Shown: piece after piece, positions 2,718 through 53,248 of the stretch | How the letters are laid out: every line of letters starts with the position of its first letter | How positions within the stretch are numbered: the first letter of the stretch is position 1 | Virus record (IMG/VR): IMGVR_UViG_3300029374_000001 | Coordinates: 1 to 64,000 of that record | Source of the DNA: a virus | DNA: 64,000 bases | Reading direction: 5' to 3' (one strand) | Position numbers and translations under genes: made by a program | The notes under the pieces: model-generated | The model's database searches: none | What the model saw: only the letters and a program-made list of their open reading frames with translations | Told to the model about the DNA's origin: nothing

Positions 2718-2718
2718 A

Positions 2719-4208: not shown

Positions 4209-6578
4209 TCAATTTCCAGACAAGTTTTGTAAGTAAGCATAGGCTGTCTGAGGATTCATGATCATACATTTTGACTTACCCTGCATGATCATTTTATTTA
4301 CCTTTTCTACTTTAGAAGAAGTAAACCCATCGTAGGGAACAATTAAGAACATAGTATTTTTAGTTACAGATTTATCTCCATCTGCACTAAATCCATGAGA
4401 GTTAAACTCTTGCTCTAATTGCTTATCCCTGACTCCACTAAAACGAACTTCTGGTAATGCCTGCTTCTGTCCATATGTCTGAATAACATTGGGCATTGAT
4501 AGGATCGTTTCCATATCTTCTTTCATAATTGTACTCCTTTCATATACAATAGATTCTGCTATAGTTCTACCCATTCCAGGAATATTATAGATCATATCAA
4601 ACAAATCTTTAGCATTGGCTTTTACAATTCTTTCTAAACGAATATGTTGTAAGATCTTTTCCCATCTGGACTGGGAGACTCCATTGAATCCAATAGCTCC
4701 TACGATTTGATAATCATAGATAGATTTCGTTTTGAGATCTTGTATTCTGGACATTAACTTTCGTCCATTGACTTCTCCCAGCAGTTCTATGGCTTTGTTT
4801 TCTTGTATATGTAAGAAGCTTGTTAAATTGGTAACTTGTAATTTTGTTAATTGCGCTCTCCCAAAGTCCTTAACTCCGAGCTTTTTGAGCATGCCCGAAA
4901 CACGTGCCAGCACTTTTTCTGGACAATACGGGTTAGTACACCATGCACTGTCTCCAGACTCTGAAAACGTGATTTCTTGCCCACAAGATGGACAATATTC
5001 TGGAAATGGAATAGGAGGTTGTTCTCTATCCATTCTTGCATTATAAGAGATATCTGGTTTAGTCAGATAACAGATCACATCGTTATTATACTTAATATTG
5101 ACGATTGATCCTTCTCTTAATCCTAATTCCATAAATCGTTTATAGGAATGAACAGTAGTCTTATCATGAGTGGTTCCAAAGAACTCTACAGGAGCAAAAT
5201 ATCCGATAGGAGTGATTCGTCCATCCTGTCCTACAGAGAACTCATACTTCATGAAATAAGTATTCTTGGCTTTTGCATTAAACTTAATGGCAATTGACCA
5301 TTTATCTACGCTGTTCTTTCTTCCTAAGATTTGTTTCATATTAGGATCGGTATAAGAGACAACTACCCCATCATAAGCAAAGTTCATAGAAGTTCTCATA
5401 TATTCTGCTTCTTCTGTAAATTGCTTAATCTGATCCACCAATTCATAATAATTTCCACGTATTAGTACATATCGCATTTCTACACCAGACGAATAATATT
5501 GATTCATCCAGTCTATTTCTTGTGCAACAGATTCAAACTGTATACCAGATGTTTTAATAGGAACCAATGTAATAAAATCTCTATACATGGTCGCATTGGC
5601 ATTGGCTAATAAACCAGATACAGCCACTCTAGGATTCTTATACTTAATTCCAAACATCTGCTCTAATTTCATCAAATTAGAATATGTAATAATAGCCTCA
5701 AACTTCATCCCAAATTTCAGATTAGGATCCATTCCTTTGGCTCTGATAAACTTCTTGCCTCCAAAGATACCCGTATAATCAGTAGCTTGCTGATTAGCCG
5801 TATCCCCTCGACTATTGGCAAATACAATGGTATCTCCTTGTATTTCTGCTTCTACAGATACACCATCATATTTTAATTCCAAAATCATTTCTGGTTTAGC
5901 CAATCCTGTTCTCTGATAAGCAGATTGTTCTGCATATGGATAAGTTGGTGTTAAGAAGTCTCTATCAAATGCAATAACCGATTCATCATCCTCTTTGACT
6001 CCAGAATTAATAGCATCATACATACTGACAAACTTACACTTGTCTAATGTCCCAATTAATTCTGGATAAGATGGTGTGGTATCTCTAACCAGTTTATTAG
6101 CTACTGTATGATCAGAAGTATCTACTATAAAATCTTCTTCTCGTACAGGATATTTATTAAATAAAATATTAGCTGCATATGTCTGTTTGTCTTTGGGAAT
6201 AGTAATCATAGCATCAATTCCCATAGAGTTGTTCTCTGCAATATTTCGCAAATCTTTTGTATTTAGTTTCAAATTGTTTGTTGGTGGCGCTCCAACAGGC
6301 GCATTTCCTCCTGTCAGCTTATTGTACTTGACCACCACCAAATCATAGATTCCATCTTCTAATGGTAGAATATCCATATCTGTATTATTGTACAGAATAT
6401 TGGATATCACCAATATTTCTCTAATAGTTTCTAAATCATTGGAATACATTGTTCCATTTAGGAATTCACTACATATCTGATTAATTGCGACAATATCTGG
6501 GCTGGTAAGAATATTCTTACCAGCCTCAAGATTAACCAGGATTTCATGAATTCGCAACTCATCTTTTGAATTGCTCAT
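4209..6578 (-). CDS. ligA: NAD-dependent DNA ligase (LigA family)
   Basis: Adenylation motif ELKYDGVSVEAE (compare LigA KLDGLAV). C4 zinc finger CPSCGQEITFSESGDSAWCTNPYCPEKV (compare LigA CPVCGS...CTNPLCPAQ). Size 789 aa. Confidence 0.85.
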   Translation of the reverse strand: MSNSKDELRIHEILVNLEAGKNILTSPDIVAINQICSEFLNGTMYSNDLETIREILVISNILYNNTDMDILPLEDGIYDLVVVKYNKLTGGNAPVGAPPTNNLKLNTKDLRNIAENNSMGIDAMITIPKDKQTYAANILFNKYPVREEDFIVDTSDHTVANKLVRDTTPSYPELIGTLDKCKFVSMYDAINSGVKEDDESVIAFDRDFLTPTYPYAEQSAYQRTGLAKPEMILELKYDGVSVEAEIQGDTIVFANSRGDTANQQATDYTGIFGGKKFIRAKGMDPNLKFGMKFEAIITYSNLMKLEQMFGIKYKNPRVAVSGLLANANATMYRDFITLVPIKTSGIQFESVAQEIDWMNQYYSSGVEMRYVLIRGNYYELVDQIKQFTEEAEYMRTSMNFAYDGVVVSYTDPNMKQILGRKNSVDKWSIAIKFNAKAKNTYFMKYEFSVGQDGRITPIGYFAPVEFFGTTHDKTTVHSYKRFMELGLREGSIVNIKYNNDVICYLTKPDISYNARMDREQPPIPFPEYCPSCGQEITFSESGDSAWCTNPYCPEKVLARVSGMLKKLGVKDFGRAQLTKLQVTNLTSFLHIQENKAIELLGEVNGRKLMSRIQDLKTKSIYDYQIVGAIGFNGVSQSRWEKILQHIRLERIVKANAKDLFDMIYNIPGMGRTIAESIVYERSTIMKEDMETILSMPNVIQTYGQKQALPEVRFSGVRDKQLEQEFNSHGFSADGDKSVTKNTMFLIVPYDGFTSSKVEKVNKMIMQGKSKCMIMNPQTAYAYLQNLSGN

Positions 6579-12322: not shown

Positions 12323-12387
12323 ATATCAACAAATTTACTTCATCTTTATAATATATAATTTTAAAATATTTAGATTACAAAAGATAC

Positions 12388-14863: not shown

Positions 14864-15550
14864 TCATAGTCTTAAGATACGATATATATTGAAGAGATCA
14901 TCTTTCTTCTTATGAATGATGATATTGATCAGATAATTTCTATATCTGTCTTCATAGATATCCATATCTACTACTTCTGATTTCTTAGCATTAATAAACG
15001 TAGGAGCAATAAACAGCAACCTTTGATCATAATAGATATGCTGTATTCCATCGGTTGCTTTAGCAGACAATGCTCGATTAAATTCTAAGATAGATTTTAT
15101 ATCTTTATACTCTGCTATTTTCTTAGAATGAGAAATCTCATTCATAATAGACTTATATAATTTAATATAATCTTTAAAATCATAACAGAGTCTGTATTCA
15201 TCTTTACACCACATATTTAACAGCTGGTCGTTTATGCCATTATACTTTGTCTTAGTTGCATAAATCTCATAGGGTTCAAACTTGCTAGTATAAGAAAACT
15301 TCTCTAAAGCAATCAGATCTTTGTTCATGATAGCTATATTTGGAAAGTCTTCTGATAGCTCAATCTTTACAGGTTCTTTGAATGTTTTCAGAATATTAGC
15401 ATCTACAAAACTTTGTGCAAATCCAATCACAGTTTTTGTAATTTGAGAATAAACCACAACGTTGGCTTTCATCTCTTTACCTATATTGATTAACTTGAGT
15501 ATATCTTCTGGAGATACTTTATATTTAATAATAGACGGAATATCATCCAT
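14864..15550 (-). CDS. hypothetical protein (228 aa) directly downstream of DNA polymerase part 1
   Basis: ORF. The size and position are compatible with a T4 gp45-like sliding clamp, but no sequence evidence supports that. Confidence 0.45.
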   Translation of the reverse strand: MDDIPSIIKYKVSPEDILKLINIGKEMKANVVVYSQITKTVIGFAQSFVDANILKTFKEPVKIELSEDFPNIAIMNKDLIALEKFSYTSKFEPYEIYATKTKYNGINDQLLNMWCKDEYRLCYDFKDYIKLYKSIMNEISHSKKIAEYKDIKSILEFNRALSAKATDGIQHIYYDQRLLFIAPTFINAKKSEVVDMDIYEDRYRNYLINIIIHKKKDDLFNIYRILRL

Positions 15551-15552
15551 AA

Positions 15553-17538
15553 TTATACAAGTCTCCTTTTAAACTTAATATCCAATTCATTCTTTTGTTC
15601 TTCTGACAAATTAGAGTGATCCAAAACAACCATACCATCAATACCATAATTTGTTTCATCAATTCTCATAGCATTGGTCAATGGTTTTTGATTATTGGTA
15701 TTATATTGTGGATCATAAGGTAAGATTTCATTCTTAACTGGATAGAATGGAATCTCTATAGTATTGAAATATTCTAAGATATCTCCATACATCTCTTTGA
15801 AATTAGCCAAATGAAACCATCTATGCATACATTCCAATGGATTGTCTGAAGTCAAATCTTCTATGAATTGACCAGATCTGGTATACATTGGGTTATTGAT
15901 TGCATTTTCGTTTTCATAAATTGTACTTGGAATCTGAATATATCCAATCAATGTATTCGGAGCCATATTATATTCTTGCTGAATAGATGGATACAGTCTT
16001 GTAAAGTCAAAATCAACTGCATTGGATGCTCTCATAATAGGTCTACCATTGATATTATCTTTAATAGAGTCTGCCACCTTAGTTGGTTCTGCTACAAAAG
16101 CTCCTTCATAGGATTTGACATTGCTATGGTCTTTGTACTTGTTGTTATTATTTCCCAATACAAAGTCTCCAAAACCTTTAAACATAATAGAGGCTCGATT
16201 GGTTAAATAGACTGTCTGTCTATGAACTTTTCTATACTGTGTTCCATTTAATAATGCTTTATTAAAGATATACGGAATATCTTCAGATTTGAACTCTATA
16301 CAATACTGTACGATAACGTCCATCATATTATATTTAACAAACGTTCGATAATCGTTATAAGGTAAGTCTTGGATATTGACCGCAATATCATGATAATCCA
16401 ATTTTCTGACACCAGCTACTTCATCTCCTATAGAATCCAAACTATACGATCTGAATTTAGCTCTGCCTTTACGTCTGGAAGCAAACTGAATCAATTGGTC
16501 TAAATATACTGAATAGGAAGTAATGTCTGCATAATCTCCCTTTTCAGCAAATTCCGTAGCAACAGCTCTTTGATCGATATTATAGTTACAACGCTTATAT
16601 TTTGCTGGAATATTCTGAGGACAAATGATTTCTTTTGGATCCACTCCCAGTCTTTTAATTCTATCAATAATAAATGGAATATCGAATGCCATGTTCCATG
16701 CCAAGACAAAATCCGGTTGTTCATGATTAATATATCCAAATAAATCATTCAGCATAACCAATTCATCATCATACATTAGGACTCTTGTTTTCAGATTCTG
16801 TAATTGGTAATACTCAACCTTATCTTGCCCACCCAAAGTATCGGTTAAAAGCTTCATAAATTCTTGATTAAACGAATCGTTATCAAACGAGTCTATAAAT
16901 GGTTGAATCAATGGATTAATATCTGATTGATTCAATAAGAATGTGGTTAATTCTTTTTTATCATGATCCAAATAAGATACTGCATTGATTGGACAGTTGC
17001 CATCTGTTGGAAATGGTGTATCCGATAACTTATTATCAACTTCGATATCCAGATAAGCTCTTGTAATAGGAGTCTCCGTGTTCTTATATTGCTCAGCAAA
17101 TCTCATTCTATAGAAATCTGTAATAGGAATATCAGATTCAAATACTCTTGTGTTTTGCTGGAAATATGCATTGGTCGCTCTGCGGTCTATTTTAATCTGC
17201 TTATTATAATAATCCAATTCTCCTATCGATTGTGCAATAGATTTAGTTAAGCTATTATATTTACATATCACTTGTTTTAGATGATCTTTAGTTTCAAAGA
17301 ACTTTCTATAGCTCGGGGTTTCTACTTCATCTTTTAACACATAATAAAAATATTCGGGTTCTTCGATAAAGGTAATTCCTTTTTGCTTGGTTATATTGTC
17401 TTTATATAAAATCGTCATAAAATCTTTGGAGTAAGATCCTGTCTCTTCATCTCGTCTTCCATATCTATATACAGTATCCATAACAACTAAATCAGAGCCT
17501 AATGGATACTTTGGAATTAATTTAGGAAAATTTGACAT
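15553..17538 (-). CDS. family-B DNA polymerase, part 1 (3'-5' exonuclease domain plus palm motif A)
   Basis: Exo I AYLDIEVD. Exo II LAWNMAFDIPFIIDRI. Exo III YNMMDVIVQY. YEGAFVAEP corresponds to YxGGxVxEP. Motif A is AVDFDFTRLYPSIQQ. The protein ends about 130 aa after motif A. Motifs B and C are absent here and found in 34749..37352. Confidence 0.85.
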   Translation of the reverse strand: MSNFPKLIPKYPLGSDLVVMDTVYRYGRRDEETGSYSKDFMTILYKDNITKQKGITFIEEPEYFYYVLKDEVETPSYRKFFETKDHLKQVICKYNSLTKSIAQSIGELDYYNKQIKIDRRATNAYFQQNTRVFESDIPITDFYRMRFAEQYKNTETPITRAYLDIEVDNKLSDTPFPTDGNCPINAVSYLDHDKKELTTFLLNQSDINPLIQPFIDSFDNDSFNQEFMKLLTDTLGGQDKVEYYQLQNLKTRVLMYDDELVMLNDLFGYINHEQPDFVLAWNMAFDIPFIIDRIKRLGVDPKEIICPQNIPAKYKRCNYNIDQRAVATEFAEKGDYADITSYSVYLDQLIQFASRRKGRAKFRSYSLDSIGDEVAGVRKLDYHDIAVNIQDLPYNDYRTFVKYNMMDVIVQYCIEFKSEDIPYIFNKALLNGTQYRKVHRQTVYLTNRASIMFKGFGDFVLGNNNNKYKDHSNVKSYEGAFVAEPTKVADSIKDNINGRPIMRASNAVDFDFTRLYPSIQQEYNMAPNTLIGYIQIPSTIYENENAINNPMYTRSGQFIEDLTSDNPLECMHRWFHLANFKEMYGDILEYFNTIEIPFYPVKNEILPYDPQYNTNNQKPLTNAMRIDETNYGIDGMVVLDHSNLSEEQKNELDIKFKRRLV

Positions 17539-17644
17539 ACTATTCTAAACTCCTTTCAAATGTTATTACATTGTATCATATAGATTTATTTGCTATATTC
17601 TCAACACATCAGTAATTTGAACTATATTGAAGGAGGAATTACCC

Positions 17645-18553
17645 GTGGATAAAAACGAAGACCTTATGGACTTCGGGCAATCTTTGTTCGAAGTAGATAC
17701 CCAGTCTGCCACTGTCCCCGTAGAAGTTGAAGACAAACCAAAACGAGGCAGACCTAAAAAGAAGCCAGTAGAAGAAGGACCTTCTGTACGTAATAGAAGT
17801 CCATTAAATTCTGACATGACTTATTTAGAAACATATAATGCACCCGCTCAAATGATGGCTGGTGTTATTGCACAAATAGATGATCTTGGCAACAAAATTA
17901 CAGCAGATCTGAATAGTGTGCGTTCTTCTCGTACACTTAAGAATAAATACTTATATATCTCCAATCTCTCCGGCGCTTTAACCGGTATTATGTCCAGCAA
18001 GATTAGTGCTATCAGAGAACTTAGAGGTATGGTAACTGATTCTAATAATTTTGAATTGAAAAAGCAGAATCAGCTTAAAATTGACGAAAGAGATTCTGAT
18101 GATAAGATTGTCATGGATATGTACAATGCTTATCTGAATGCTCCTGTTGGCAAATTACAGACTGGTCCTATGAGTCCTGTATCGGCTGGTTATATCAACA
18201 GTAATACAGATGGCGTAAATATTACTCATAATGACAATGGAGCCTATGCTATGTCTTCTGAACCTGGATACGATGCTTACTTACAGAATCTAAGTCCAGA
18301 ACAGAAAGCAATGGTCAATGAAAAGAATCCATATATTGAAACTGTTTTGGTTTACAATCAATCCGACCAATCAAAATGGTTTGAAGTTATTGATACTAGA
18401 ACAGGTATGCAAGTTCCTGGTATTCCTGTACCGCCCGATTTTGTCAGAGACGGATGCAATGTCAATATTAGAGCTGGTATAGCTCGTAATGCCAATTTAA
18501 ATCAAACTTTTAAATTAAAAGTTGTTGGTGTAGGACAGTCTGATGAATTCTAA
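17645..18553 (+). CDS. hypothetical protein with an AT-hook (KRGRPKKKP)
   Basis: The ORF track starts at a TTG at 17627. A GTG at 17645 has AAGGAGG 8 nt upstream and is the more plausible start. Confidence 0.5.
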   Translation: MDKNEDLMDFGQSLFEVDTQSATVPVEVEDKPKRGRPKKKPVEEGPSVRNRSPLNSDMTYLETYNAPAQMMAGVIAQIDDLGNKITADLNSVRSSRTLKNKYLYISNLSGALTGIMSSKISAIRELRGMVTDSNNFELKKQNQLKIDERDSDDKIVMDMYNAYLNAPVGKLQTGPMSPVSAGYINSNTDGVNITHNDNGAYAMSSEPGYDAYLQNLSPEQKAMVNEKNPYIETVLVYNQSDQSKWFEVIDTRTGMQVPGIPVPPDFVRDGCNVNIRAGIARNANLNQTFKLKVVGVGQSDEF

Positions 18554-18592
18554 TTCATCAATATAATATATAACAAAAAATAAATTTATGGA

Positions 18593-22059: not shown

Positions 22060-22123
22060 TTAACCACCTCTTCCTGTATAAATATCTCTATACTCAGAAT
22101 TATAATATATAATTATAAAAAAT

Positions 22124-22161: not shown

Positions 22162-24252
22162 TTAAGCATTTACTCTTACACGTTCAATGGTTGGTGTACC
22201 ATTTTTGTTCTGAGAAATCACATCAATACGGAAACGAGCAATTTCTGGTTCGAATTCGTTTAGCATTCTTTCCGGAACTTCATATCCCATCTGAAGAGCT
22301 CTATAGATAATAGCGCCGAATTCATAACGAGTCATAACTCTATCTCCCTTGAATTCTCCATCAAGATAGCCTTTGATAATATCGTTGCCTGCCAGCGTAG
22401 CAATATATTCATAGGCCCAATGATTTTTCGGAACATCTGGGAAGATTTTGATCTTGCCTGTATCGATAGCATCTCCAATAACCAACTGTTTGATAACGCT
22501 TCTAAGATTTTCTACTTCAGCACGAAGATCTTTAATCTCTTTTGCCATAGCAATCTTAGAACCATTGACGTGGTTTCCTCCACCAATCTTAAGACTTACG
22601 CCCGCATTGATTGCATTTTCTCCACCACCGAAAGAAGCTCCCAAAGAAACCATGGTATCCTCGTTCGGACGATAGAATGCACCAAGCGCTGTTGCATTAG
22701 CATTCTTATAATGACCATATCCTACAGCAATATCCAACTTGCTGTCTGGATCAAAGTCTAACGGATGAAGAGCTGCCAAAGCGGCTGCATTCGCACCAAC
22801 CTTATTAATACGTCTATCCAGTTTACCCATCCGACCATTAATATTCGTAATATTATTGCGAACGTCATGGATATCCTGATGGATATTATGAATATCGTTG
22901 TTGATATTGGTGATACTGTCTTTGTTCTGCTTAATAGCAGCATCCAATTTCTGATCTGCTTCTACCAAACTTGTAGAACCTTTGATATAGGTTGTAGAAG
23001 AATACTGACTGGATAAATTGGTAGGATCTGTAGCTCCTATCGTATTGGTGATATTCAAATCTGCAGCTTTACGAGCATCCTGTTCTTTCTTCAGATCAGA
23101 AGCTTTAGCTACATCTTTGATTACCACATCACCAAGCTTAGTACCAGAGTAGTTATCTTTAACTTCCAGAGTTACCTTGTTATCAGTAGAGATATCATAT
23201 TCTCCAGGCTGCACAGAGTTGTCTTTCATCTTACCTTTAAGATTGACTTTGGAGCCATCTTTCTTTTGCAAAGTAATGGTACCATCATCATTGATTGATC
23301 CATCAACAATGTTGTTACCATGAACAACTTCTGCTAAAGACCTAAGCTGCGCTACATTGACAGCATCATCAGAACTTGTGCCAGCGGCTACATTAACGAT
23401 CTGACGCTTATAGCGATCATTACCTATGCTGACTGCTCCGGATGTGGACTCCCATACTGACCATCCGGAATGTTTTGGATTAATACTCATGGTTGCAGGA
23501 TCCCAACCGAGAACACCTTTATCAATATTGGCTTTTGATTCTTTGCCCAATGCAATACCACCTTTAACATTAGTGGTTGAGAACTTGCCAATTGCTATAG
23601 CATCGTCAGCATATGTTTCTCCACCGATACCAATTACATAATCTCCTCTAACAGTCCATGCATTAATACCAACAGAATATTTCCCATAAACATTGGTGGT
23701 AGTACTGCCAATTCCTAATGAATCGCCACCATATACTCGAGTTTCTCCACCGATGGCAGTACTACCACCTGCAAGCGCCATTGCCTGTGTACCGATAGCT
23801 ACAGCATGATACCCATGTGCTTTTGCCAAATTACCAAACGCAACAGCATCCTGACCAATGGCTTCGGCATTAACACCCATTGCAACGGCTTCGCCATCAC
23901 CATGACTCTTAGCTGTACATCCAGAACCCACAGCAACAGAAATCCAATTTCTGCTGTTGTCTTCATTGGTACCATCAACTTCATTATGGTTGCCTATAGC
24001 AATAGCGTCAAAACCTTTAACTTTGTTGTACACACCTACAGACAGTCCCATAGATGCATTTTCCATTTCCGATTCTCTTCCGATCATAGTACTCCATTCG
24101 GAATTTTTCATTTTGAGTTTATTCCCAATAACAGTATATTCGGTACTACTTGTGACAGTATTATTAGCACCTTTCTCAATATTTACTGCATACGTTACTG
24201 ATGTTACGCATAATGCGCACATCGTAGTTAATAAAATCTTTTTGTTTCTCAT
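22162..24252 (-). CDS. trimeric autotransporter adhesin (YadA-like head, neck and beta-barrel anchor) with a C-terminal SLH domain. Negativicutes-type architecture.
   Basis: Signal peptide MRNKKILLTTMCALCVTSVTYA with AAGGAGA upstream (the ORF-track Met at 24285 is probably too early). Head repeats AVAIGTQAMALAGGSTAIGGET. Neck DAVNVAQL. Anchor AALAALHPLDFDP...GYGHYKNANATALGAFYRPNEDTMVSLGASFG. The C-terminal FPDVPKNHWAYEYIATLAGNDIIKGYLDGEFKGDRVMTRYEFGAIIYRAL is an SLH consensus. Confidence 0.8.
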   Translation of the reverse strand: MRNKKILLTTMCALCVTSVTYAVNIEKGANNTVTSSTEYTVIGNKLKMKNSEWSTMIGRESEMENASMGLSVGVYNKVKGFDAIAIGNHNEVDGTNEDNSRNWISVAVGSGCTAKSHGDGEAVAMGVNAEAIGQDAVAFGNLAKAHGYHAVAIGTQAMALAGGSTAIGGETRVYGGDSLGIGSTTTNVYGKYSVGINAWTVRGDYVIGIGGETYADDAIAIGKFSTTNVKGGIALGKESKANIDKGVLGWDPATMSINPKHSGWSVWESTSGAVSIGNDRYKRQIVNVAAGTSSDDAVNVAQLRSLAEVVHGNNIVDGSINDDGTITLQKKDGSKVNLKGKMKDNSVQPGEYDISTDNKVTLEVKDNYSGTKLGDVVIKDVAKASDLKKEQDARKAADLNITNTIGATDPTNLSSQYSSTTYIKGSTSLVEADQKLDAAIKQNKDSITNINNDIHNIHQDIHDVRNNITNINGRMGKLDRRINKVGANAAALAALHPLDFDPDSKLDIAVGYGHYKNANATALGAFYRPNEDTMVSLGASFGGGENAINAGVSLKIGGGNHVNGSKIAMAKEIKDLRAEVENLRSVIKQLVIGDAIDTGKIKIFPDVPKNHWAYEYIATLAGNDIIKGYLDGEFKGDRVMTRYEFGAIIYRALQMGYEVPERMLNEFEPEIARFRIDVISQNKNGTPTIERVRVNA

Positions 24253-24352
24253 TCTAATCTCTCCTTTTAAAAATAACGAATACATATATTATATATGCTG
24301 GCACTTATATAATATATAATTTCAGAAAAAATAGATTGCAAAAAAAAAATAA

Positions 24353-24386: not shown

Positions 24387-26789
24387 TTATGCTCGTATAA
24401 TAGAAACAGAAGCTACACCAGACGAATCTGTTATCTTTTCTCCCTGAGAAATAGAAGATCCATTGGGAATTTGGATAATCGGATATACTTTAGAATTTCT
24501 ATGTGTAGTAATAGCCAAAGAATCCGTTTCATTACATACTCCAATATATTTAATAGAGTCCGTCTTACTCAATTTAATGATAACGTCTCCTGCTCTGGCT
24601 CTGGTTCCTCTATTGATAGAATCTAAACCAATCTTATTAACTCTTCCAGATTCTGTAACTACAATCACATGTGTTGAGTTAGGAATAATACAACACATCC
24701 CATCAATAGCATACTTGGAAGATTTCATTCCAATAACCCCTTTGGTGGTTCTGGATAATAAAGGAATATCGGAAGCCCATATCCGCAATACTTTGTTATG
24801 AGCATAAATCAGAATCTCATTAGCAGATCCTGCCACTAACAAATCTGCAATCGTATCTCCTTCATTCAGCTTCGCATACATCAAACCAGATAATGGAATA
24901 TTAAATAGCTCAGAGATATTCATTCTCTTTGCTAATCCTTGTCTGGTAATAGTGATAATACTACCTTCCATATTCTCTGCTTTATAAGACCGATCAATGG
25001 TATCCAGCATAGACTCTGGAATAACAGCAGATATACCTTCTCCAGAATATTTCTTAACAGCAATACGCATATCAATTCCATTAGAGTTCTTAGCGGCAAA
25101 TGGAATCTTATGTACAGGAATCTTGTATACTTTGGCTAAAGAACCAAACAGTAACAAAGAATCTGTATTGTTTGCTGTCAATACAAATCTAGCCTTATCA
25201 TTTCGTAAGCTTAATGATTTATCGGATACATCAATCTTCTTAATAAACCCAGATTCTGTAATAACAACTTTAAATATTCCTTCTGGAATTCCTTCTGCTT
25301 CAGATGCAGAAACAATTCTGCTTCTTCTTGGACAACCATATTTCTTATTAATAGCAATCAGTTCTTCTTTGATAATACCGGTTAACTTTTCCGGATGAAT
25401 ACTCCAATCCAAATATTGTCTGGCTTTAGCATCTAAGTCATTATATTCTGTAATATAATCATTCAGATATCCTACAGATAATTTCTTCAGATTGATATTC
25501 AGAATAAACTTAGCTTGTAATGGAGTAATATCTTTTACTGTCTTCAGCATAAAGTTAATTAACTCTTCATCATCTCTGGTTTTCTGTTTACGTATCTTAT
25601 CAATAATCTGATCAATCTTACCAGACTTTAAGATCTTGATGTAGAAATCCAATTCATGCATACGAGTCTTACACTCTTTTAACTTGGCATTAAACATTCT
25701 GGCTTTACGTTCAATACGGAAGTTAATAAAGTTCTGTAAGTATTGTTTATAACTCCAAATAACCGGATTGTTATTATACACAACTTCAAAGTTTACAGAT
25801 TTGGTCGCTTCCAATCGAGTATGCTTATACAGAATATCTCTAACATAATGAGGATCTGTATCTTTCTTCAATACAATATAAACTTCAAAGTTAGACTTCA
25901 TTGCTTTCTTATGAAGATCTGTAGTGGTATTATTATAGATATCGATAACCTGTGGAAGAATATTCTTTTCTTTCAGATCTTCTATCTTATTCTTGATATC
26001 TTCAAAATATACCATATGAGGCAACGCTTTAACAATCAGAGCTGGTTTATTCTGGAATTCCCCAATATCAATTTTAGCTCTAACTTTAAATCGTCCTTTA
26101 CCGGTTCTGGATATTGTTGCAAAATCTGCTTCAATAATATCACAACCCTGAGGATCATCTGGTAATAAAATGATCTCATCATTGGGATGATCAATCAGAT
26201 GAATGGTTGCATCAATAACTTCTGATATATTATGAGGAGGAATGTTTGATGTCATTCCTACCGCAATACCAAAACTACCGTTGATTAAAAGATTCGGAAC
26301 TTTAGATGGAAAGTATAATGGTTCCATGACTGTGTTATCATAATTCCAGTCCCAATCTGTAGAAGAATATGTTTCTGTCATATCCCCAATAATACATTCT
26401 ACAGCATAAGGGGTTAATGCTGCTTCTGTATAACGAGAAGCAGCTGCGCTATCCCCCCAAATATTACCAAAAGATCCTTTTGGTTTAATTAATGGCATAT
26501 AAGATTCAAACCAGTTGGTCATACCTTTCATTGCTCCGTAAATACCGGAATCAGAATGTGGATGAAATCTCTGCATAACGATTCCGACTATAGATGCCGA
26601 TTTAACGGTTGTACCCGTTCTGGTTTGTTTCAAATATTCATACATAGTATATAAAATTTTTCTTACTACTGGCTTTAATCCATCTACCGCATGTGGAATC
26701 GCTCGTTCTCTACATACGGCTTCTGCATAGGTTTTCAAATCTTGATTAGCTTGTGTGACTATGTTTTCATCAATTATTCTTTCAGCCAA
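24387..26789 (-). CDS. type II topoisomerase A subunit (GyrA/ParC-like)
   Basis: AIPHAVDGLKPVVRKILYTM (GyrA has DGLKPVHRRVLYAM). HPHSDSGIYGAMKGM. Active-site ASRYTEAAL. PNLLINGSFGIAVGMTSNIPPHN. Confidence 0.9.
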   Translation of the reverse strand: MAERIIDENIVTQANQDLKTYAEAVCRERAIPHAVDGLKPVVRKILYTMYEYLKQTRTGTTVKSASIVGIVMQRFHPHSDSGIYGAMKGMTNWFESYMPLIKPKGSFGNIWGDSAAASRYTEAALTPYAVECIIGDMTETYSSTDWDWNYDNTVMEPLYFPSKVPNLLINGSFGIAVGMTSNIPPHNISEVIDATIHLIDHPNDEIILLPDDPQGCDIIEADFATISRTGKGRFKVRAKIDIGEFQNKPALIVKALPHMVYFEDIKNKIEDLKEKNILPQVIDIYNNTTTDLHKKAMKSNFEVYIVLKKDTDPHYVRDILYKHTRLEATKSVNFEVVYNNNPVIWSYKQYLQNFINFRIERKARMFNAKLKECKTRMHELDFYIKILKSGKIDQIIDKIRKQKTRDDEELINFMLKTVKDITPLQAKFILNINLKKLSVGYLNDYITEYNDLDAKARQYLDWSIHPEKLTGIIKEELIAINKKYGCPRRSRIVSASEAEGIPEGIFKVVITESGFIKKIDVSDKSLSLRNDKARFVLTANNTDSLLLFGSLAKVYKIPVHKIPFAAKNSNGIDMRIAVKKYSGEGISAVIPESMLDTIDRSYKAENMEGSIITITRQGLAKRMNISELFNIPLSGLMYAKLNEGDTIADLLVAGSANEILIYAHNKVLRIWASDIPLLSRTTKGVIGMKSSKYAIDGMCCIIPNSTHVIVVTESGRVNKIGLDSINRGTRARAGDVIIKLSKTDSIKYIGVCNETDSLAITTHRNSKVYPIIQIPNGSSISQGEKITDSSGVASVSIIRA

Positions 26790-26850: not shown

Positions 26851-27429
26851 TTAATTTCCTGTGGAACCAAATCCACCTTTTCTGGTTTCTTTTGCATTAT
26901 CTTCTTCTACTGTATAATAAGAAAGAATAATTCCCTGTGCTACCTTATTACCAGGTTTAATCATAACAGTAATTCCATCAATGGATGGGTCTGTAGCTCT
27001 GACAGATAAAATCTTATAATCTTCATCATATTCATATTTCTTAGGAGAATGTACCTTAGGATATGTTCTAAGAGCTAAGATAATATCTCCTTCATTAGAT
27101 TCATTATTATAATAATCTTTATCGATAATTCCTACAGAATTAGCTAAGAAGTAGCCATATTTAGTAGAACTGGAACGCTGTACAATCTGCAAGAAGTTTT
27201 CAGGATTCAAATCAATCTTAATACCAGTAGGTACCATGGTTGGTTCCATGCCATTGATATATGTATAGATAGGAGTTACAAAATCGTATCCTGCTGCATA
27301 TTTAGTGGATCTTTTAGGAAGTTGTATACGATCATAAGAAGCTTTAATTTCTTCTTCAGACATCGCATCATTATAGAATTTCTTAATATCTTTTCTAAAT
27401 GCTTCAAAACTAACCTTTTCAAATTTCAT
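26851..27429 (-). CDS. dut: dUTP pyrophosphatase
   Basis: Motifs AAGYDF, GIIDKDYY and the C-terminal RKGGFGSTG. Confidence 0.85.
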   Translation of the reverse strand: MKFEKVSFEAFRKDIKKFYNDAMSEEEIKASYDRIQLPKRSTKYAAGYDFVTPIYTYINGMEPTMVPTGIKIDLNPENFLQIVQRSSSTKYGYFLANSVGIIDKDYYNNESNEGDIILALRTYPKVHSPKKYEYDEDYKILSVRATDPSIDGITVMIKPGNKVAQGIILSYYTVEEDNAKETRKGGFGSTGN

Positions 27430-29212: not shown

Positions 29213-29270
29213 AATATCTTCTCCTTTTTATAAAATATAAATGAACTTCTCATACTTATAATATATAATT
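29211..29270 (-). promoter_or_regulatory. 60-nt leader/promoter module ending AAAAGGAGAAGATATTATG. The same module is present at 50586..50644.
   Basis: 59 of 60 nt identical between the two copies, with one small indel. Confidence 0.5.
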
Positions 29271-34605: not shown

Positions 34606-34748
34606 AGTATTTCACCTCCATTAGTGTTTTCAACATTCTTAATACATGACCACAATAAAATGTAGTTTAAATAAATGTTCTTATAATTGAATTAAAAAAT
34701 GATTTATTATAACACACTCCAATACATAGAGAAGAAAGGAGATATATA

Positions 34749-35179
34749 ATGAAACCTAGTCAAAGTATTGCTTTTCAAGATTATAAAGATACAATGAGAA
34801 GAAACATCAGATATTTATTTCCTCAATTAAGTAGTGACGAGTTGGAACGAGCTATAGAATATTCCATAAATAAGAGAATTATAAACTCAGCTTGTCAACT
34901 GAATGACACATATAAGAATGCTGTATATAATACTAATATGTTAGAATTAACAGAGTATATCATGCATGATCGACCAATACTGACATCCTTCGGATGTCTA
35001 TTTCATAGGCATGGAGATATAGATAATCCATTATACATGATGATACAAGAATTTGCAGATAGACGTAACAGATTTAAGAAAGAAATGCTAAAGCATAAAA
35101 AAGGTAGTGAGCAATATAAACATTTTGACTTAGCTCAAGCCGTCGCTAAGGTGGATGTCAATGCTGAAACAAACGCATT
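34749..35179 (+). CDS. family-B DNA polymerase part 2, exon 1. Ends in the first half of motif B, ...AKVDVNA(F)
   Basis: AAGGAGAT RBS then ATG. The C-terminal RRNRFKKEMLKHKKGSEQYKHFDLAQAVAKVDVNAETNAF corresponds to the pre-motif-B region. K-VDV-NA corresponds to K-xxx-NS of KxxxNSxYG. The frame is closed by a TAA at 35181, which lies inside the intron. Confidence 0.75.
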
Positions 35180-35605
35180 CTAATGCGTTTGGGATAGGCC
35201 TCTTTATAAAGTAATTTATAGAGAGAATCCTGGTGAATTGCTGGAAACCGGTAAAGATCTGATAACTACAATATATTTTTAATATATGAATGTGACGAAA
35301 GTCAGAAACAATATCAGATATAACCTAAGCTGAAATAAAAGAGTAGTATATATGAAATTCTTACTTATTTAAAAGAATATATATATTATTTGCTAAGGGT
35401 ATAATAAGAAAATCCGCAATCAGCAGCGAAGCTTCTATATATTATAGAAGAACGTTCAACGACTATTATGTAGAGTACAAGCGTATTCGAAGTGCCAGGC
35501 TCCAATATAATATTGGATGAAGATATAGTCTGTCCATGTATGAGAGTACATGAAGTTCATAAGAGAACTGGGTAGATGTAGCGAATCTATTCGAACACAT
35601 GAGAT
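35180..35605 (+). ncRNA. group I self-splicing intron with no ORF. Boundaries are accurate to only a few nucleotides.
   Basis: Core elements readable in the sequence: P-like GAATTGCTGGAAACCGG, Q-like AATCCGCAATCAGCAGC, R-like GTTCAACGACTAT, S-like GAAGATATAGTCTGTCC (consensus AAGAUAUAGUCC). A P1-type hairpin AACGCATTctAATGCGTT spans the exon1/intron junction. Splicing restores KVDVNA(F/I)YGAMGQ, matching T4 KIKINSLYGALGN. Confidence 0.8.
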
Positions 35606-37352
35606 CTACGGCGCTATGGGGCAACCATCTTCTATATTTTATAACTTTGAAGTGGCAGCTTCCATTACCAGACAAGGAAGAGCTTCTATTGCAGCATCTA
35701 TTATGCTCTTTGAGTCTTTCTTAGCTAACAATATTAAATTTGGATCTTTGAACGAAGTGATTATGTTCATTGATCATATTGTATTAATGAAACCAACTAG
35801 ACAATATGAAGACCATCGAATCTTAGATAGAGATGTCTCTATCCAAGAAGTCTTTGATAAACTAATGAGTTCTTGTGGATATCGATGGAAACCAGATCAT
35901 ACAGAAGCCAATATTATCTGGAAAATTTTACATCAATTATCCCAATTTCATTTAAACAGACTCTATTATAAAAATAATATCTATGCTTTCTTTAATAATA
36001 CCGCACCCAAAGACTTCTTATTGGAGTTATTATATTCTTTGGATTCTCCATTTATCGATCCCAATTCTCCACCACCAATGATTAAGGCTAATTTGGATGT
36101 ATTGGTAGATATGGTCAAAGAGTATATTTATTATCCATATCAGATCATCGATAAAATAGAACGAGTAGAAACATTGTATCGTCAAATCGATTTAGTAACC
36201 GATACAGATTCTTGTATTATTTGTTTAAATCCATGGTATGAATATGTAGCCAATCTAACCAAAGATCTGGATATCGATCTGAAACATTATGAATTGGATA
36301 TAATTGGATTGTTGAATAAAGAAAATCCCAATGATGCATCTGATTTGAAAGAAGAAAGTAAAACAGAATATATCTACGATTTTAGAAATAAAGAAATTTT
36401 GGAAAGAAAACGATTAGTAGATCCATTTAAAATTATTCCAGAAGACGCTATGAGATATAGCATCATCAATATACTGGCATATATCATTAGTAAGCTATTA
36501 CGAGATTACTTCGATCGTATAAGCATTAAGAATAATGTAACTAATGATGCTCATAATTTTTGTTTGATGAATATGAAGAACGAATTCTTATTCTTACGGA
36601 TGTTATTGTCCGATGCTAAGAAGCATTATGCGTCTATTGTAGAACTTCAGGAAGGTCATAAAGTTCCCTTAGATAAGCAATTAGATATTAAAGGATTACA
36701 GATTGATAAGTCTGTTGTACCAGAATCTACTAAAGAAGCTCTTGGAAATATTTTACATGAAGATGTATTACGACCAAATTATATTGATCAAATGAAGATC
36801 ATCAATAAATTGGCTGTTCTGGAAAAGACCATCTATGATGATATCTATAATGGCGGATTGAAATACTATAGTCCTAAAAAGCTTAAACCATTTGTTACAT
36901 ATAAGAATCCAATGAGTACACAGCAGGTTAAAGCTTCTATTGTTTATAACTTATTTAGAGATGAAGATGAGGCATATATCAATATTGATGAAAATAATTC
37001 TGTATTGATTATTGGAGTTAATATTGATGCTCATTCATTAGAATCTTGTAAACTAAAAGAATCGGATCCTGAGAAATATGAAATCATGAGAAAGATTATT
37101 TATGAGAATCCAGTAATTGAAGTTTCTCAGAATAAAATTGCTGTGAAGATATTCAATGATAATCTAGCTCTAAATAGTCGAAAAATTACTAGTATAGCTA
37201 TTCCTAGAGATAGTCAAACACCTAAATGGATACTAGAGTTTATTGATTATGCCAGCATAGTTAAAGATAATATCGGTACCTTCCCATTGAAGAGTATTGG
37301 TATTACTAAGCTAGATACGAACAGTGCGTACAGTGGCATTATCAATCTATAA
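35606..37352 (+). CDS. family-B DNA polymerase part 2, exon 2 (motif B second half, motif C, KKxY, thumb)
   Basis: YGAMGQPSSIFYNFEVAASITRQGR resembles T4 [25 protein letters not shown]. Motif C is YRQIDLVTDTDSCI. AKKHYASIV corresponds to KKRY. The ORF-track start at 35550 is an internal Met within intron and exon sequence. Confidence 0.8.
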
Positions 37353-37361
37353 GGAGAAAAT

Positions 37362-37916
37362 ATGTTTACAAATAATGAAAAAGAAATTTTAAGAACAATA
37401 ATCAAAGATTGTAAGAAAGCTAATATTTCAAGATCTGCTATATTTGAATTTCTAAAATGGTATTTGTTTGTCGATTATACTTGTAATAATATAGATAGTT
37501 TTATTATGCGGTTCCATAAGTTGTCTTCTATAGATTTCAGTATATTCAATACTGATATTCTTAGAACAATAGCTGTTCATGTATCTCAATTCTTTATAAA
37601 TTCTTATATAATAGCAAATGCTATGGAATCTATTCTGAAAATAGGTGAACCAATATCAACAAAGCAAGTAATAAATACATATCATGAATTCATTGATAAA
37701 ATTAATCATAATCAGAAGATTCCAGTTATTGCTATAATTCACAATAAGCCTACAAATCAGCATACATATATAGTATTAAATAATATATCCGATGATTGCG
37801 ATTCTATTGAAGATTTGGATCTTTCTGACAACGCATTATCTTTTACTATCAATTTTATCAAAGATCATTATAACGATATTCAATCTAAGATAGACGAAAT
37901 ACAAAAAGCATATTAA
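37362..37916 (+). CDS. hypothetical protein
   Basis: 184-aa ORF with RBS AAGGAGAA. Confidence 0.5.
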   Translation: MFTNNEKEILRTIIKDCKKANISRSAIFEFLKWYLFVDYTCNNIDSFIMRFHKLSSIDFSIFNTDILRTIAVHVSQFFINSYIIANAMESILKIGEPISTKQVINTYHEFIDKINHNQKIPVIAIIHNKPTNQHTYIVLNNISDDCDSIEDLDLSDNALSFTINFIKDHYNDIQSKIDEIQKAY

Positions 37917-37928
37917 TTTGTATCATTA

Positions 37929-37960
37929 TAATCCATAGACTCATATGAGTCTATGGATTA
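37929..37960. terminator. TAATCCATAGACTCatatGAGTCTATGGATTA, followed by T8 on plus and convergent with the minus gene
   Basis: 14-bp perfect stem. Confidence 0.6.
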
Positions 37961-37975
37961 TATGTGTAATTTTTT

Positions 37976-38410
37976 TTAATGATTATCTTTTTTATTTTTA
38001 ATTTCTTCTAAAAGTTTACGAGCACGTTCTCTAGCCTTAGGTAAATTCTTATTAATGAAATCATCATACTTTTTAATTTTGGGATCATTTTGCAATCCTT
38101 GACGTACTCTATCATGCCCACTTTTGAAATGAGATACAATTCGATTATACTCCGTATCATCATGCCGACGGGTTTTATCGTTTGTATGTTTCTCAGAGTT
38201 ATGTTTCGCTTCGTCTTCTATTTTACGAACGTTCCGATTAAAAATAGATCTTGCATTATCTTTAAGAGTAGACTCATCAGCTTCCATATATACATTACAT
38301 TCATCTTCTAATGAATATTCATTAGATTCTAACATACTTTCTAATTCATCACATGCATTATTATATCCTTCTATATAAGCTTGTTCTAAATCTTCTTTTG
38401 TATATAACAT
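37976..38410 (-). CDS. hypothetical basic protein carrying the shared module LESNEYSLEDECNVYME
   Basis: 144-aa ORF. Nucleotides 38284..38332 are near-identical to 40510..40558. Confidence 0.45.
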   Translation of the reverse strand: MLYTKEDLEQAYIEGYNNACDELESMLESNEYSLEDECNVYMEADESTLKDNARSIFNRNVRKIEDEAKHNSEKHTNDKTRRHDDTEYNRIVSHFKSGHDRVRQGLQNDPKIKKYDDFINKNLPKARERARKLLEEIKNKKDNH

Positions 38411-38604
38411 AGTTTAATATACCTCCTATAATATGATGATTATTATGATGTATAAAAAAAAAGAATAATCAAATAATCCATAATATTTTATTAAAAAAGA
38501 ATATTTATTGTTAAAATGGAATCTATCTTTTTTTCAATTATATATTATATAGGTGTAATAACCATAATAAATTTACATTTATTTTTAAAAGGAGGATAAT
38601 TATT

Positions 38605-41211: not shown

Positions 41212-42063
41212 TTAACTATACTTCTGGCAGAATTTATCTATCTGATTTTCCACAAATCTACCAAGAGGAACAACAATTGTTTCATAAGATTCTGTCACCA
41301 TAGTAACAGATTTTTTATCTTCAGATAAAGTAATGCTCTTATAAATGGGAGAGAAGTCATTGCAGATCTGATAGAAGCTATAAGACTCTTTAATCAACAA
41401 GTCTACTACATCCTGATTCATAACAGGAGCTACAGCTTCAAATCCTTCTTTAACAATCTGCTGATTACCTTTAGAAGTAATCATATGATCTAAAGAATCT
41501 CCTTCAAATCCAGCAGATTCAGAAATAATGCGATTGGTATACGCATTATCATAAGATGGATAATAGACTCTATCATAAGTAACAATTCTTAAATTAGTTA
41601 CATTGGACTGCCCATTAACAATCTTGATAGAACCTAGGCTTCTTAATGAATAGGATGGCTTCTGTCCAGCTTTCAAATCTTCATTAAACGCTCTGCCGAG
41701 TTCGTTATTAGTTCCTCTGACATGAGCTTTAACATAATCTCCATCCATCCATAACTTAGTATACCAGACTTGCTCCAAAGTGGGGTCTACTTTCTGCTGT
41801 CTGGCTAAGTTCATATCCAACGGATGACCAGCTTCTCCTTTAAAGTTGCCAGTGCTTACCAATTCTCTGATACGATCAGAGTAAATTTCTTTACGCAAAT
41901 CTGCTTCTGTATAATAACGTCTGTTTCTATTTAATTTCATTGCCTGTTGTAGTGTACATTCAGCAACCAAGAAGCCATTATCATTACGAATTACGTCGCA
42001 AGAGACGCAATCTGCAACCCCTTCGTTGATAATATATGCTACAGGTTTATCTGATATTGGCAT
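41212..42063 (-). CDS. hypothetical protein. Possibly a prohead protease or core protein, judged by position next to an acidic scaffold-like protein only.
   Basis: 283-aa ORF. No catalytic motif confirmed. Confidence 0.4.
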   Translation of the reverse strand: MPISDKPVAYIINEGVADCVSCDVIRNDNGFLVAECTLQQAMKLNRNRRYYTEADLRKEIYSDRIRELVSTGNFKGEAGHPLDMNLARQQKVDPTLEQVWYTKLWMDGDYVKAHVRGTNNELGRAFNEDLKAGQKPSYSLRSLGSIKIVNGQSNVTNLRIVTYDRVYYPSYDNAYTNRIISESAGFEGDSLDHMITSKGNQQIVKEGFEAVAPVMNQDVVDLLIKESYSFYQICNDFSPIYKSITLSEDKKSVTMVTESYETIVVPLGRFVENQIDKFCQKYS

Positions 42064-50587: not shown

Positions 50588-50670
50588 AATATCTTCTCCT
50601 TTTGTAAAATATAAATGAACTTCTCATACTTATAATATATAATTAAAAAAAAATAAAAGTCAATAGAATA

Positions 50671-52364: not shown

Positions 52365-53057
52365 TTATATTTCAAATTGATCAGCATACGTTGCCAGTTC
52401 GCCTCTATAGTTTTTAGTCAATACACATTCTTTAGCCCATTTCTTTTCACACATATATTTTATATATTTTTCAAAGGCTCCATTGGTGTTCTTGGTGTCT
52501 CTTTGTGCACTATGACCGGCCAATATAACTTTACAGTCATCATGAATTCTAGTCAATATTAATTTAAGACTGGATAGATCGCCATTCTGTGCTTCATCAA
52601 CAATAACTACAGATTTTTCTATATTTGTTCCTCTTAATCCAATATCTGTACACAATATAAATGATTGATTATTTCTTCCATAGTCTACATCCTCTGGACG
52701 TAAACCTAAGTCTTCGCATATATCGTAGAATGGTCTGAAGTATATACTCTCCTTTTCTAATTCTGACCCAGGCAAGAATCCTAACTTTAGAGAACGTAAG
52801 TCAGGAATTCGTATATAATAGACATGATTCATACATCCTTGTCTGAGCATTTCTAATGCTGCCATAATTCCAATATACGTTTTACCAGTTCCAGCAGGAC
52901 TGTTGATGCCAATAAACTTTAGATTCTTATCCATAATAGAATGATAATATTCTTTTTGATATACATCCAATTTAGAATAAGCTCTTCCTAAGATTTTGTC
53001 ATCCACATAAAAAGCTCCACCACTGTCTTTGCTACTGCCAGAATGTCTGTTATTCAT
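52365..53057 (-). CDS. phoH: PhoH-family ATPase
   Basis: Walker A SPAGTGKTY. VVIVDEAQN. The start is probably MNNRHSG (AGGAAGAG upstream) rather than the ORF-track Met at 53219. Confidence 0.8.
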   Translation of the reverse strand: MNNRHSGSSKDSGGAFYVDDKILGRAYSKLDVYQKEYYHSIMDKNLKFIGINSPAGTGKTYIGIMAALEMLRQGCMNHVYYIRIPDLRSLKLGFLPGSELEKESIYFRPFYDICEDLGLRPEDVDYGRNNQSFILCTDIGLRGTNIEKSVVIVDEAQNGDLSSLKLILTRIHDDCKVILAGHSAQRDTKNTNGAFEKYIKYMCEKKWAKECVLTKNYRGELATYADQFEI

Positions 53058-53248
53058 TATAATACCAGCTCTCTTCCTATATAGAATTAAGTATTGTAAG
53101 AGGAATACTTTACTATATTGTTTATCAATCAAAACATGCATAGAATCTATAGATTTGAAGGTTTTTATAAAAATAAAAAGAACTAATAGTACAATTATAC
53201 CATAAGTATCTTTTATCAAATATCAAAATATATAAAATGATAATAGAG

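Follow-up and report, generated by a model that had tools for sequence, protein, structure and literature searches.

How can a replicative DNA polymerase be encoded by two genes that lie 17 kb apart on opposite strands, one of them interrupted within its most conserved coding segment? The question is raised by a 64,000-nucleotide (nt) stretch of viral DNA, positions 1 to 64,000 of the IMG/VR virus record IMGVR_UViG_3300029374_000001 (hereafter the window, meaning that whole stretch), in which an earlier reading made from the letters alone (the sequence-only reading) had recognized a family-B DNA polymerase in two parts, the second with a group I intron. Our analyses indicate that the two genes very likely encode the replicative family-B polymerase of a jumbo phage of the PhiKZ/AR9 type, an enzyme of two subunits with a shared active site, whose second subunit (DNAP-C) is made from an intron-spliced message. 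That the two proteins of the window phage form an active heterodimer, and that they share a palm-insertion domain where the polymerase is split, we infer from the work on PhiKZ; splicing, too, is predicted.

Two genes carry complementary parts of a family-B DNA polymerase

The two genes and their ribosome-binding sites are as follows:

15553..17538, minus strand: DNAP-N (part 1), an open reading frame (ORF) of 661 amino acids (aa), with the N-terminal domain (NTD), the 3'-5' exonuclease and the start of the palm, motif A included
17550..17556, minus strand: Shine-Dalgarno sequence AAAGGAG of part 1, 11 nt upstream of its ATG, read from the sequence
34735..34741, plus strand: Shine-Dalgarno sequence AAAGGAG of part 2, 7 nt upstream of the ATG at 34749, read from the sequence
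34749..35165, plus strand: exon 1 of DNAP-C (part 2), codons 1-139, ending ...KVDVNA, last base U
35604..37352, plus strand: exon 2 of DNAP-C, codons 140-721 and stop, with IYGAMGQ, a helical insertion, motif C, KKHY, the thumb and the C-terminus

The exonuclease domain of part 1 was identified as Pfam DNA_pol_B_exo1 (1.6e-11), and the protein matched PHROG 3011 'DNA polymerase' (1.9e-56); its match to the start of Pfam DNA_pol_B, at 19.3 bits, was below the cut-off of 23. In a phmmer alignment, residues 102-445 of RB69 gp43 were paired with residues 152-546 of part 1, including the strings DIEV (Exo I), WN..FDIP (Exo II), YN..D (Exo III) and DFDFTRLYPS (motif A), and a profile built from seven sequences covered RB69 gp43 residues 87-445 (E 1.3e-21); motifs B and C are not on part 1. 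In part 1 numbering the motifs are D164-I-E166 (Exo I), N282..F285-D286 (Exo II), Y403..D407 (Exo III) and D509-F-D511..Y516-P-S518 (motif A), and D164/E166, D286, Y403/D407 and D509/D511 are invariant columns in the family alignment. Approximately 150 residues separate motif A from the stop codon, and the protein ends before the fingers. The ORF, Pfam, phmmer and profile results therefore agree with the sequence-only reading, which had given part 1 these coordinates on the minus strand and described it as carrying Exo I to III and motif A before stopping.

The raw sequence of part 2 contains two ORFs, one of 144 aa (34749-35183, ending ...KVDVNAETNAF and a stop) and one of 600 aa (35550-37352) that holds IYGAMGQ, DTDS and KKHY, and the joining of 34749-35165 to 35604-37352 gives an in-frame protein of 721 aa. 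This spliced protein matched Pfam divDNApol PF20286 'divergent family B DNA polymerase' (1.1e-33) and DNA_pol_B (3.4e-14), so part 2 is a polymerase homolog and not an unrelated protein. Its motifs are K134-VDVN-A/I-Y141-G142 (motif B, the slash marking the intron position), D339-T-D341-S (motif C) and K478-K479-H-Y481; the catalytic residues are invariant among relatives. Motif A is absent from part 2, and motifs B, C and KKxY are found only there. The coordinates, plus strand, own ribosome-binding site and ATG, and the motifs that had been read from the letters were all confirmed by the sequence, Pfam and the spliced translation. From K134 to D339 there are approximately 200 residues, versus approximately 60 in RB69, and in an AlphaFold2 (AF2) model the region of about residues 190-330 is helical, with a predicted local distance difference test score (pLDDT) near 90; this helical stretch between motifs B and C may correspond to the palm insertion of PhiKZ.

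The nearest cultured relatives by tblastn were the AR9/PBS1 group of Bacillus jumbo phages (27-29% identity, both halves), then S6-like Staphylococcus phages, Listeria LPJP1, Bacillus BpSp and Yersinia phiR1-37 (AR9/PBS1 through phiR1-37 spanning 27-32% per half), with PhiKZ-type Pseudomonas, Erwinia, Vibrio and Aeromonas phages more remote. Relatives were seen only at the protein level; when part 2 was compared by megablast with a set of 50,697 phage records, nothing matched. Consistent with the proximity to AR9, window ORFs matched the beta-N, beta-C and beta'-C subunits of the AR9 non-virion RNA polymerase (nvRNAP) and PHROG 3015, and the multisubunit RNA polymerase, ligase, UvsX and superfamily 2 (SF2) helicase genes of the window matched AR9 genes. 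At the profile level, both halves proved homologous to the PhiKZ split polymerase: hhalign joined the part 1 family to gp82 (97.7%, E 1.8e-12, Exo I through motif A) and the part 2 family to gp50 (98.3%, E 1.2e-14, motif C to the C-terminus).

In PhiKZ, gp82 and gp50 form a stable 1:1 complex, solved at 2.1 A by cryo-electron microscopy (cryo-EM), with interdigitated chains and with polymerase and exonuclease activities both present (Basu et al., bioRxiv October 2026; PMC13648687). The split point lies in the palm insertion; DNAP-N gives the NTD, the exonuclease and D562 of motif A, DNAP-C gives the remaining palm, the fingers, the thumb and D426 of motif C, the substitution D562A abolishes polymerisation, and a third protein, Rhc (RNase H-clamp), boosts synthesis (PMC13648687). 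In the window phage, one catalytic aspartate, that of motif A, is on part 1 and the other, that of motif C, is on part 2, so neither half would be a polymerase alone. Based on this PhiKZ-like split of the catalytic residues (D509/D511 and D339/D341) and the near-identical sizes of the proteins, we infer that the two proteins work only as a heterodimer, with an active site composed from both. In such an enzyme the NTD and the proofreading exonuclease would come from DNAP-N, along with a first segment of the palm that holds the aspartate of motif A. DNAP-C would contribute motif B in the fingers, a second segment of the palm in which the motif C aspartates lie, and also KKxY and the thumb. The subunits would be translated from separate transcripts and then assemble, with the polymerase active site split over both chains. 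The complementary motifs and the homology to the active PhiKZ complex thus support the earlier proposal that separately expressed halves form one polymerase.

Until 2026 such gene pairs were read as two independent enzymes, which here would make part 1 a stand-alone exonuclease and part 2 a stand-alone polymerase that cooperate loosely at the fork. When the PhiKZ polymerases were found, the exonuclease was described as being on a separate chain (Kazlauskas & Venclovas 2011; PMC3201878), and it was likewise described as separate in all 'group 1' jumbo phages (Iyer et al. 2021); the distance between the genes and their opposite strands would also suit two enzymes. However, motif A (D509/D511, LYPS) is on part 1 only, which leaves part 2 without one metal-binding aspartate motif, and the PhiKZ work argues against independence on two counts, the interdigitated 1:1 complex and the loss of polymerisation with D562A in DNAP-N (PMC13648687). 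As such, we consider two independent enzymes very improbable.

Several observations weigh against the two-subunit polymerase. The similarity to PhiKZ is at the profile level only, and the N-terminal 330 residues of part 2 were unaligned to gp50. The AF2 model of the isolated C-half was mediocre (pLDDT 72.7, predicted template modelling score 0.53), and its Foldseek matches to family-B polymerases were weak (E >= 0.01). The intergenic motif AATTATATATTATA, a probable promoter described below, has no copy within 2 mismatches just upstream of part 1.

With respect to the integrity of the genes, close relatives on independent 250-268 kb contigs from separate samples carry both genes at the same sizes. 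Among the best 120 relatives listed per half, the C-halves are approximately 420-746 aa (the shorter being exon fragments), the N-halves are 460-666 aa and none is long enough for a fused polymerase. The split could in principle be an assembly artefact, or mark a pseudogenised, decaying polymerase; nothing specific speaks for this beyond the lack of a near-identical reference genome, and against it stand the same two genes at the same sizes on those independent contigs, the invariant catalytic residues and the ribosome-binding site of each gene. At the level of sequence, conservation across relatives already effectively refutes an artefact or pseudogene, and we regard the chance of either as negligible; nor is the pattern of motifs, intron and gene positions one that arose by chance. 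An intein split (protein trans-splicing) was also rejected, since Pfam searches of both halves (E <= 0.1) turned up neither intein nor Hint families. These genes extend the two-subunit family-B architecture, for which biochemical proof exists only in PhiKZ, to a large and very divergent group of jumbo phages that are uncultivated; contigs from samples of the Human Microbiome Project style are among the closest relatives.

A group I intron interrupts motif B of the second gene

The elements between the two exons of part 2 are:

35166..35603, plus strand: group I intron of 438 nt without an ORF, last base G, in which P6a is a short hairpin
35193..35199, plus strand: internal guide sequence GAUAGGC, in which GGC pairs with GCU of exon 1 (P1) and GAU with AUC of exon 2 (P10)

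Rfam RF00028 matched over its full model (1-253) at 35179-35552, with a score of 61.3 bits (gathering threshold 50; E 4.1e-13), and this was the sole Rfam match in the window; no tRNAs were found in the window. The intron lies between codons 139 and 140, within motif B. The score above the gathering threshold and the in-frame joining of the exons bear out the group I intron that had been recognized in the second gene from the letters alone. The splice-site wobble of P1 is formed by U35165 with G35197, and the final intron base is G35603. Both guide helices covary among related alleles (the L numbers here and below are our labels for contigs): the second pair of P1 is C-G in the window and G-C in L011 (exon GGU, guide GCC), and P10 is AUC/GAU in the window, AUA/UAU in L012 and AUU/AAU in L024, its third pair being C-G, A-U and U-A, respectively. 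RNAalifold, run on five variants, predicted P10 as well, and compensatory changes were apparent at another 11 base pairs, located in P2, P3, P5, P8 and P9.

As judged from sequence, natural alleles that lack the intron fix the position of the splice junction. Two of these (P0001 and P0005; 721 aa, 98-99% identical) contain KVDVNAIYGAMGQ and AKVDVNAIYGAMGQ unbroken, exactly as in the predicted splice product, and in the protein database approximately 30 clusters of 721-aa proteins are 96-99% identical to the spliced product, on contigs up to 262 kb. The DNA of one intron-less allele, on the 258-kb ENA contig L023, reads AATGCG/ATCTAC, with the slash at the insertion site. The exon base at -1 is U/T in all intron-bearing alleles (7/7) and G in intron-less L023; a T at the last exon position of the intron-bearing alleles corresponds to the requirement of the P1 U.G wobble. 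The 438-nt intron would thus leave the DNAP-C pre-mRNA before translation, guided by P1 and P10; the spliced message would read GTCAATGCT followed directly by ATCTACGGC across 35165/35604, and the protein would span the junction peptide VDVNAIYGAMGQ, with motif B restored as KVDVNA-IYGAMGQ.

If the message were left unspliced, the 144-aa (34749-35183) and 600-aa (35550-37352) ORFs would be translated apart and the polymerase would be in three pieces. Both ORFs are indeed present and are called separately, the longer one in protein cluster P0031 (115 member sequences, starting MKFIRELGRC...). Against this, the gap is a group I intron above the Rfam gathering score, with covarying P1 and P10; motif B would be cut in two, with 5 and 18 unrelated residues added to the pieces; the intron-less alleles encode a single 721-aa chain; and by eye there is no good Shine-Dalgarno sequence before the ATG at 35550. 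Given this evidence, a three-piece polymerase appears extremely improbable, and we favor the spliced DNAP-C.

The same intron was found in five related contigs, and among IMG/VR relatives at 84-98% protein identity three forms of it were apparent:

L009 and L013: intron of 438 nt, as in the window
L011 and L014: intron of 426 nt, with other P1 and P2
L010 and L012: endonuclease-bearing intron of approximately 1250 nt

The P6a loop of the long introns holds an ORF of 275-277 aa with NUMOD4 and HNH_3 domains (9052-9879 in L010, 9004-9837 in L012). Among phages with 84-99% identity in the C-half gene, alleles without the intron thus occur alongside alleles whose intron either lacks or carries the endonuclease ORF, and the intron is a mobile element of familiar type that, by sequence comparison, is seen in several states. 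Polymorphism of the motif B intron, together with a guide that covaries with synonymous exon changes, makes these phages a natural system for the study of intron homing. The L011 variant scored 62.4 bits against RF00028. Rfam missed the endonuclease-bearing introns of L010 and L012, which were recognized by alignment and by eye. A homologous intron of 344 nt was identified at the identical motif B site in L024 (2669-3012), an ENA contig of a clade at 60% identity, with the core elements GAATTGCTGG, AATCAGCAGC, GTTCAACGACTA and GATATAGTC in common with the intron of the window; Rfam did not report it even at E <= 0.01, and there is a sensitivity gap in Rfam for compact variants such as this one.

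In public gene calls on intron-bearing alleles, the 600-aa protein of cluster P0031 starts at an intron-internal ATG (MKFIRELGRCSESIRTHE...), and the 144 aa of exon 1 are entered as a protein of their own. The intron-bearing gene is thus systematically mis-annotated, and often the two halves of the polymerase carry no label other than 'hypothetical'.

Gene order and orientation

A distance of 17,211 bp separates the two halves, which lie on opposite strands, as the coordinates in the sequence-only reading had indicated; the approximately 25 genes that it had placed between them were revised to 17 ORFs of at least 60 aa. Part 2 is in a 3.2-kb plus-strand islet (34749-37916), in a window that is otherwise almost entirely minus-strand. 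The gene order was compared with that of AR9 and found to match in two blocks, one consisting of the virion protein gene gp127, a small ORF and DNAP-N, the other of DNAP-C and, divergent from it, nvRNAP beta'-C gp153 followed by the SF2 helicase gp155. Within each block the order and orientation are as in AR9, and block 2 is inverted relative to block 1. Based on gene order, the opposite-strand placement reflects a block inversion relative to AR9, without an evident mechanistic role. A heterodimer and an ancestral inversion had been posed as alternatives; both are supported, the former by the PhiKZ homology and the latter by the AR9 block order, and they are not exclusive, so that only the either/or framing is dropped.

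The two-gene polymerase layout is also present in PBS1, and the positions of the halves in other relatives were as follows:

AR9: N-half gp131 at 108.4-110.1 kb, C-half gp151 at 125.1-127.1 kb; approximately 15 kb apart, same strand
S6: N-half at 81.4-82.9 kb, C-half at 61.0-62.7 kb; 18.6 kb apart, same strand
BpSp: N-half at 156.5-158.5 kb, C-half at 167.4-169.1 kb; approximately 9 kb apart, same strand
phiR1-37: N-half g170 (+), C-half g167 and g164 (-); approximately 2 kb apart, opposite strands
PhiKZ: N-half gp82 at 77.96-79.88 kb, C-half gp50 at 40.58-42.77 kb; 35 kb apart, same strand
IMG/VR contig 3300045988_119718: N-half (-) at about 13-15 kb, C-half (+) at about 114-116 kb; approximately 99 kb apart, opposite strands

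The rarity of separated, inverted halves that had been implied earlier does not hold: separated halves are the rule in phages of the PhiKZ/AR9 type, and opposite strands also occur in phiR1-37 and contig 3300045988_119718, the latter showing the layout in the clade at 60% identity. Since the distance ranges from 2 to approximately 99 kb, on either strand, linkage of the genes is not needed for assembly, and since distances and orientations vary so widely among relatives, the layout in the window looks like a neutral rearrangement.

Expression signals

Candidate signals around the two genes are:

34698..34711, plus strand: candidate promoter AATGATTTATTATA of the part 2 unit, a copy of AATTATATATTATA with 2 mismatches, 38 nt upstream of the ATG
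12347-12360 (-), 22101-22114 (-), 24308-24321 (-), 29257-29270 (-), 38536-38549 (+) and 50631-50644 (-): examples of AATTATATATTATA copies
37930..37959: 30-nt perfect palindrome with a T-run, between the convergent ORFs 37362-37916 (+) and 37976-38410 (-)

A scan of the window identified 6 exact copies of the intergenic motif AATTATATATTATA and 25 with <=2 mismatches, versus 12.9 +/- 3.6 expected, and the exact copies that were checked are upstream of genes in the right orientation. The motif is nearly equal to the annotated early-promoter consensus of AR9, AAATATATATTAT, and because of this resemblance it is probably the promoter of the virion RNA polymerase of the window phage. As part 1 is without such a copy just upstream, co-regulation of the two genes is plausible, though unproven. 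A copy with 2 mismatches, TGTTATATATTATA at 18562-18575 (-), points toward part 1 from approximately 1 kb upstream, antisense to the plus-strand ORF 17666-18553; it could be due to chance or mark a long leader. The palindrome is a probable two-way terminator at the end of the part 2 unit, judging from its position and T-run.

Other genes in the window

Additional genes that were annotated or examined include:

14864-15550, minus strand: ORF of 228 aa that starts 3 nt after the DNAP-N stop, at the position of the AR9 RNase H gp130
22162-24285, minus strand: 707-aa adhesin of the trimeric-autotransporter type, with the head, stalk and anchor domains of YadA and, at the C-terminus, an S-layer homology (SLH) domain
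26851-27429, minus strand: dUTPase
24387-26645, minus strand: GyrA-like topoisomerase subunit
4209-6578, minus strand: NAD-dependent DNA ligase
52365-53141, minus strand: PhoH
41212-42063, minus strand: S77 prohead protease

The 228-aa protein belongs to a small family (approximately 22 representatives of 220-260 aa among 1.84 billion representatives), and a 235-aa counterpart follows the N-half in the clade at 60% identity. BLASTP and hhalign revealed no similarity to the AR9 RNase H gp130, sequence searches of Pfam, PHROG and the PDB gave nothing significant, and the AF2 model was unusable (pLDDT 39). This protein could conceivably be an unrecognised third replicase subunit of the lineage, for example a DNA-binding processivity factor in the role of the clamp domain of PhiKZ Rhc, although we think this unlikely.

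The 707-aa YadA and SLH protein is encoded among phage replication genes, between the polymerase halves. The arrangement of an anchor followed by SLH is described as typical of Veillonella, other Negativicutes, some Fusobacteria and Synergistetes (PMC7549365), and by its domain composition the adhesin suggests a diderm Firmicute host. The dUTPase gene is of note in view of the uracil-containing DNA of AR9/PBS1, the nearest cultured relatives; reasoning from this gene, we suggest that the DNA of the window phage, unlike theirs, may be without uracil.

Comparison with known split polymerases and polymerase introns

The layout described here is already the known norm for jumbo phages of the PhiKZ/AR9 type, and the polymerase mechanism is already experimentally established in PhiKZ; the window represents a new, very divergent and uncultivated member. 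Split family-B polymerases are also found elsewhere. The archaeon Methanothermobacter thermautotrophicus has a split family-B polymerase of two polypeptides, with genes far apart on the chromosome. It is of another lineage and has a different break point. In the T4-like gp43A/gp43B pairs of Acinetobacter phages Acj61, Acj9 and ZZ1 the replicase is likewise cut between motif A and the fingers, and part 1 matched gp43A at approximately 24-26% identity; the Aeromonas Aeh1 group has such a split as well. However, the gp43A and gp43B cistrons are adjacent, co-oriented and of the classic T4 polymerase clade, whereas the genes in the window are dispersed and the C-half is of the PF20286 clade. The T4-like type was therefore rejected as the closest system, given the 17 kb and opposite strands between the halves, PF20286 and the AR9-type best relatives.

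Mobile group I introns with HNH homing endonucleases occur in phage DNA polymerase genes of the SPO1/SP82 type. As in the window, those introns are inserted where the coding sequence of the polymerase is most highly conserved. The motif B intron resembles them further in having an HNH/NUMOD4 ORF in a peripheral loop of some alleles and in being present or absent among alleles. Their host gene is a family-A polymerase, whereas here it is the C-half of a family-B polymerase, and the copy in the window is without the endonuclease ORF.

PhiKZ gp82/gp50 has the same domain division as the window proteins, with subunits of 638/731 aa versus 661/721 aa, non-adjacent genes in both and C-halves that both match PF20286. 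In PhiKZ the genes are co-oriented and we found no report of an intron, whereas in the window they are on opposite strands and one has an intron; PhiKZ also uses Rhc as a third subunit, and no Rhc was recognisable in the window. The window phage appears to group with AR9-type phages and not with the nucleus-forming chimalliviruses.

AR9/PBS1, S6, BpSp and phiR1-37 have the same two-gene split as the window. In AR9, gp131 bears the annotation 'DnaQ-like exonuclease and partial catalytic domain' and gp151 that of a 'type-B catalytic domain', and an early promoter is annotated for each. The window and the AR9 group also have neighbours in common: the C-half is divergent from nvRNAP beta', and after the N-half come a small ORF and then the gene of a virion protein. 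That small ORF encodes an RNase H in AR9 and the unrelated 228-aa protein in the window. The C-half genes of Staphylococcus PB50 and AH12 and of Listeria LPJP1 are broken after approximately 340 codons, that of AH12 being broken again (gaps at 2341-2537 in L003, 2533-3022 in L004, and 2341-2537 and 2766-3010 in L006). These gaps of approximately 200-490 nt had no Rfam intron match, and may be unrecognised introns, real further splits or frameshifts.

In AR9, PBS1, S6 and BpSp both halves are on one strand, unlike in the window. A parallel in arrangement is phiR1-37, in which the halves are likewise on opposite strands and the C-half gene likewise contains a group I intron (2611-3010 (-) of L002, approximately 110610-111009 of the record; RF00028, 63.4 bits). 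Its exons are annotated as separate genes, g167 and g164 ('DNA polymerase'), and the tiny ORFs g165 and g166 overlap the intron. The intron of phiR1-37 sits after motif C, whereas that of the window is in motif B.

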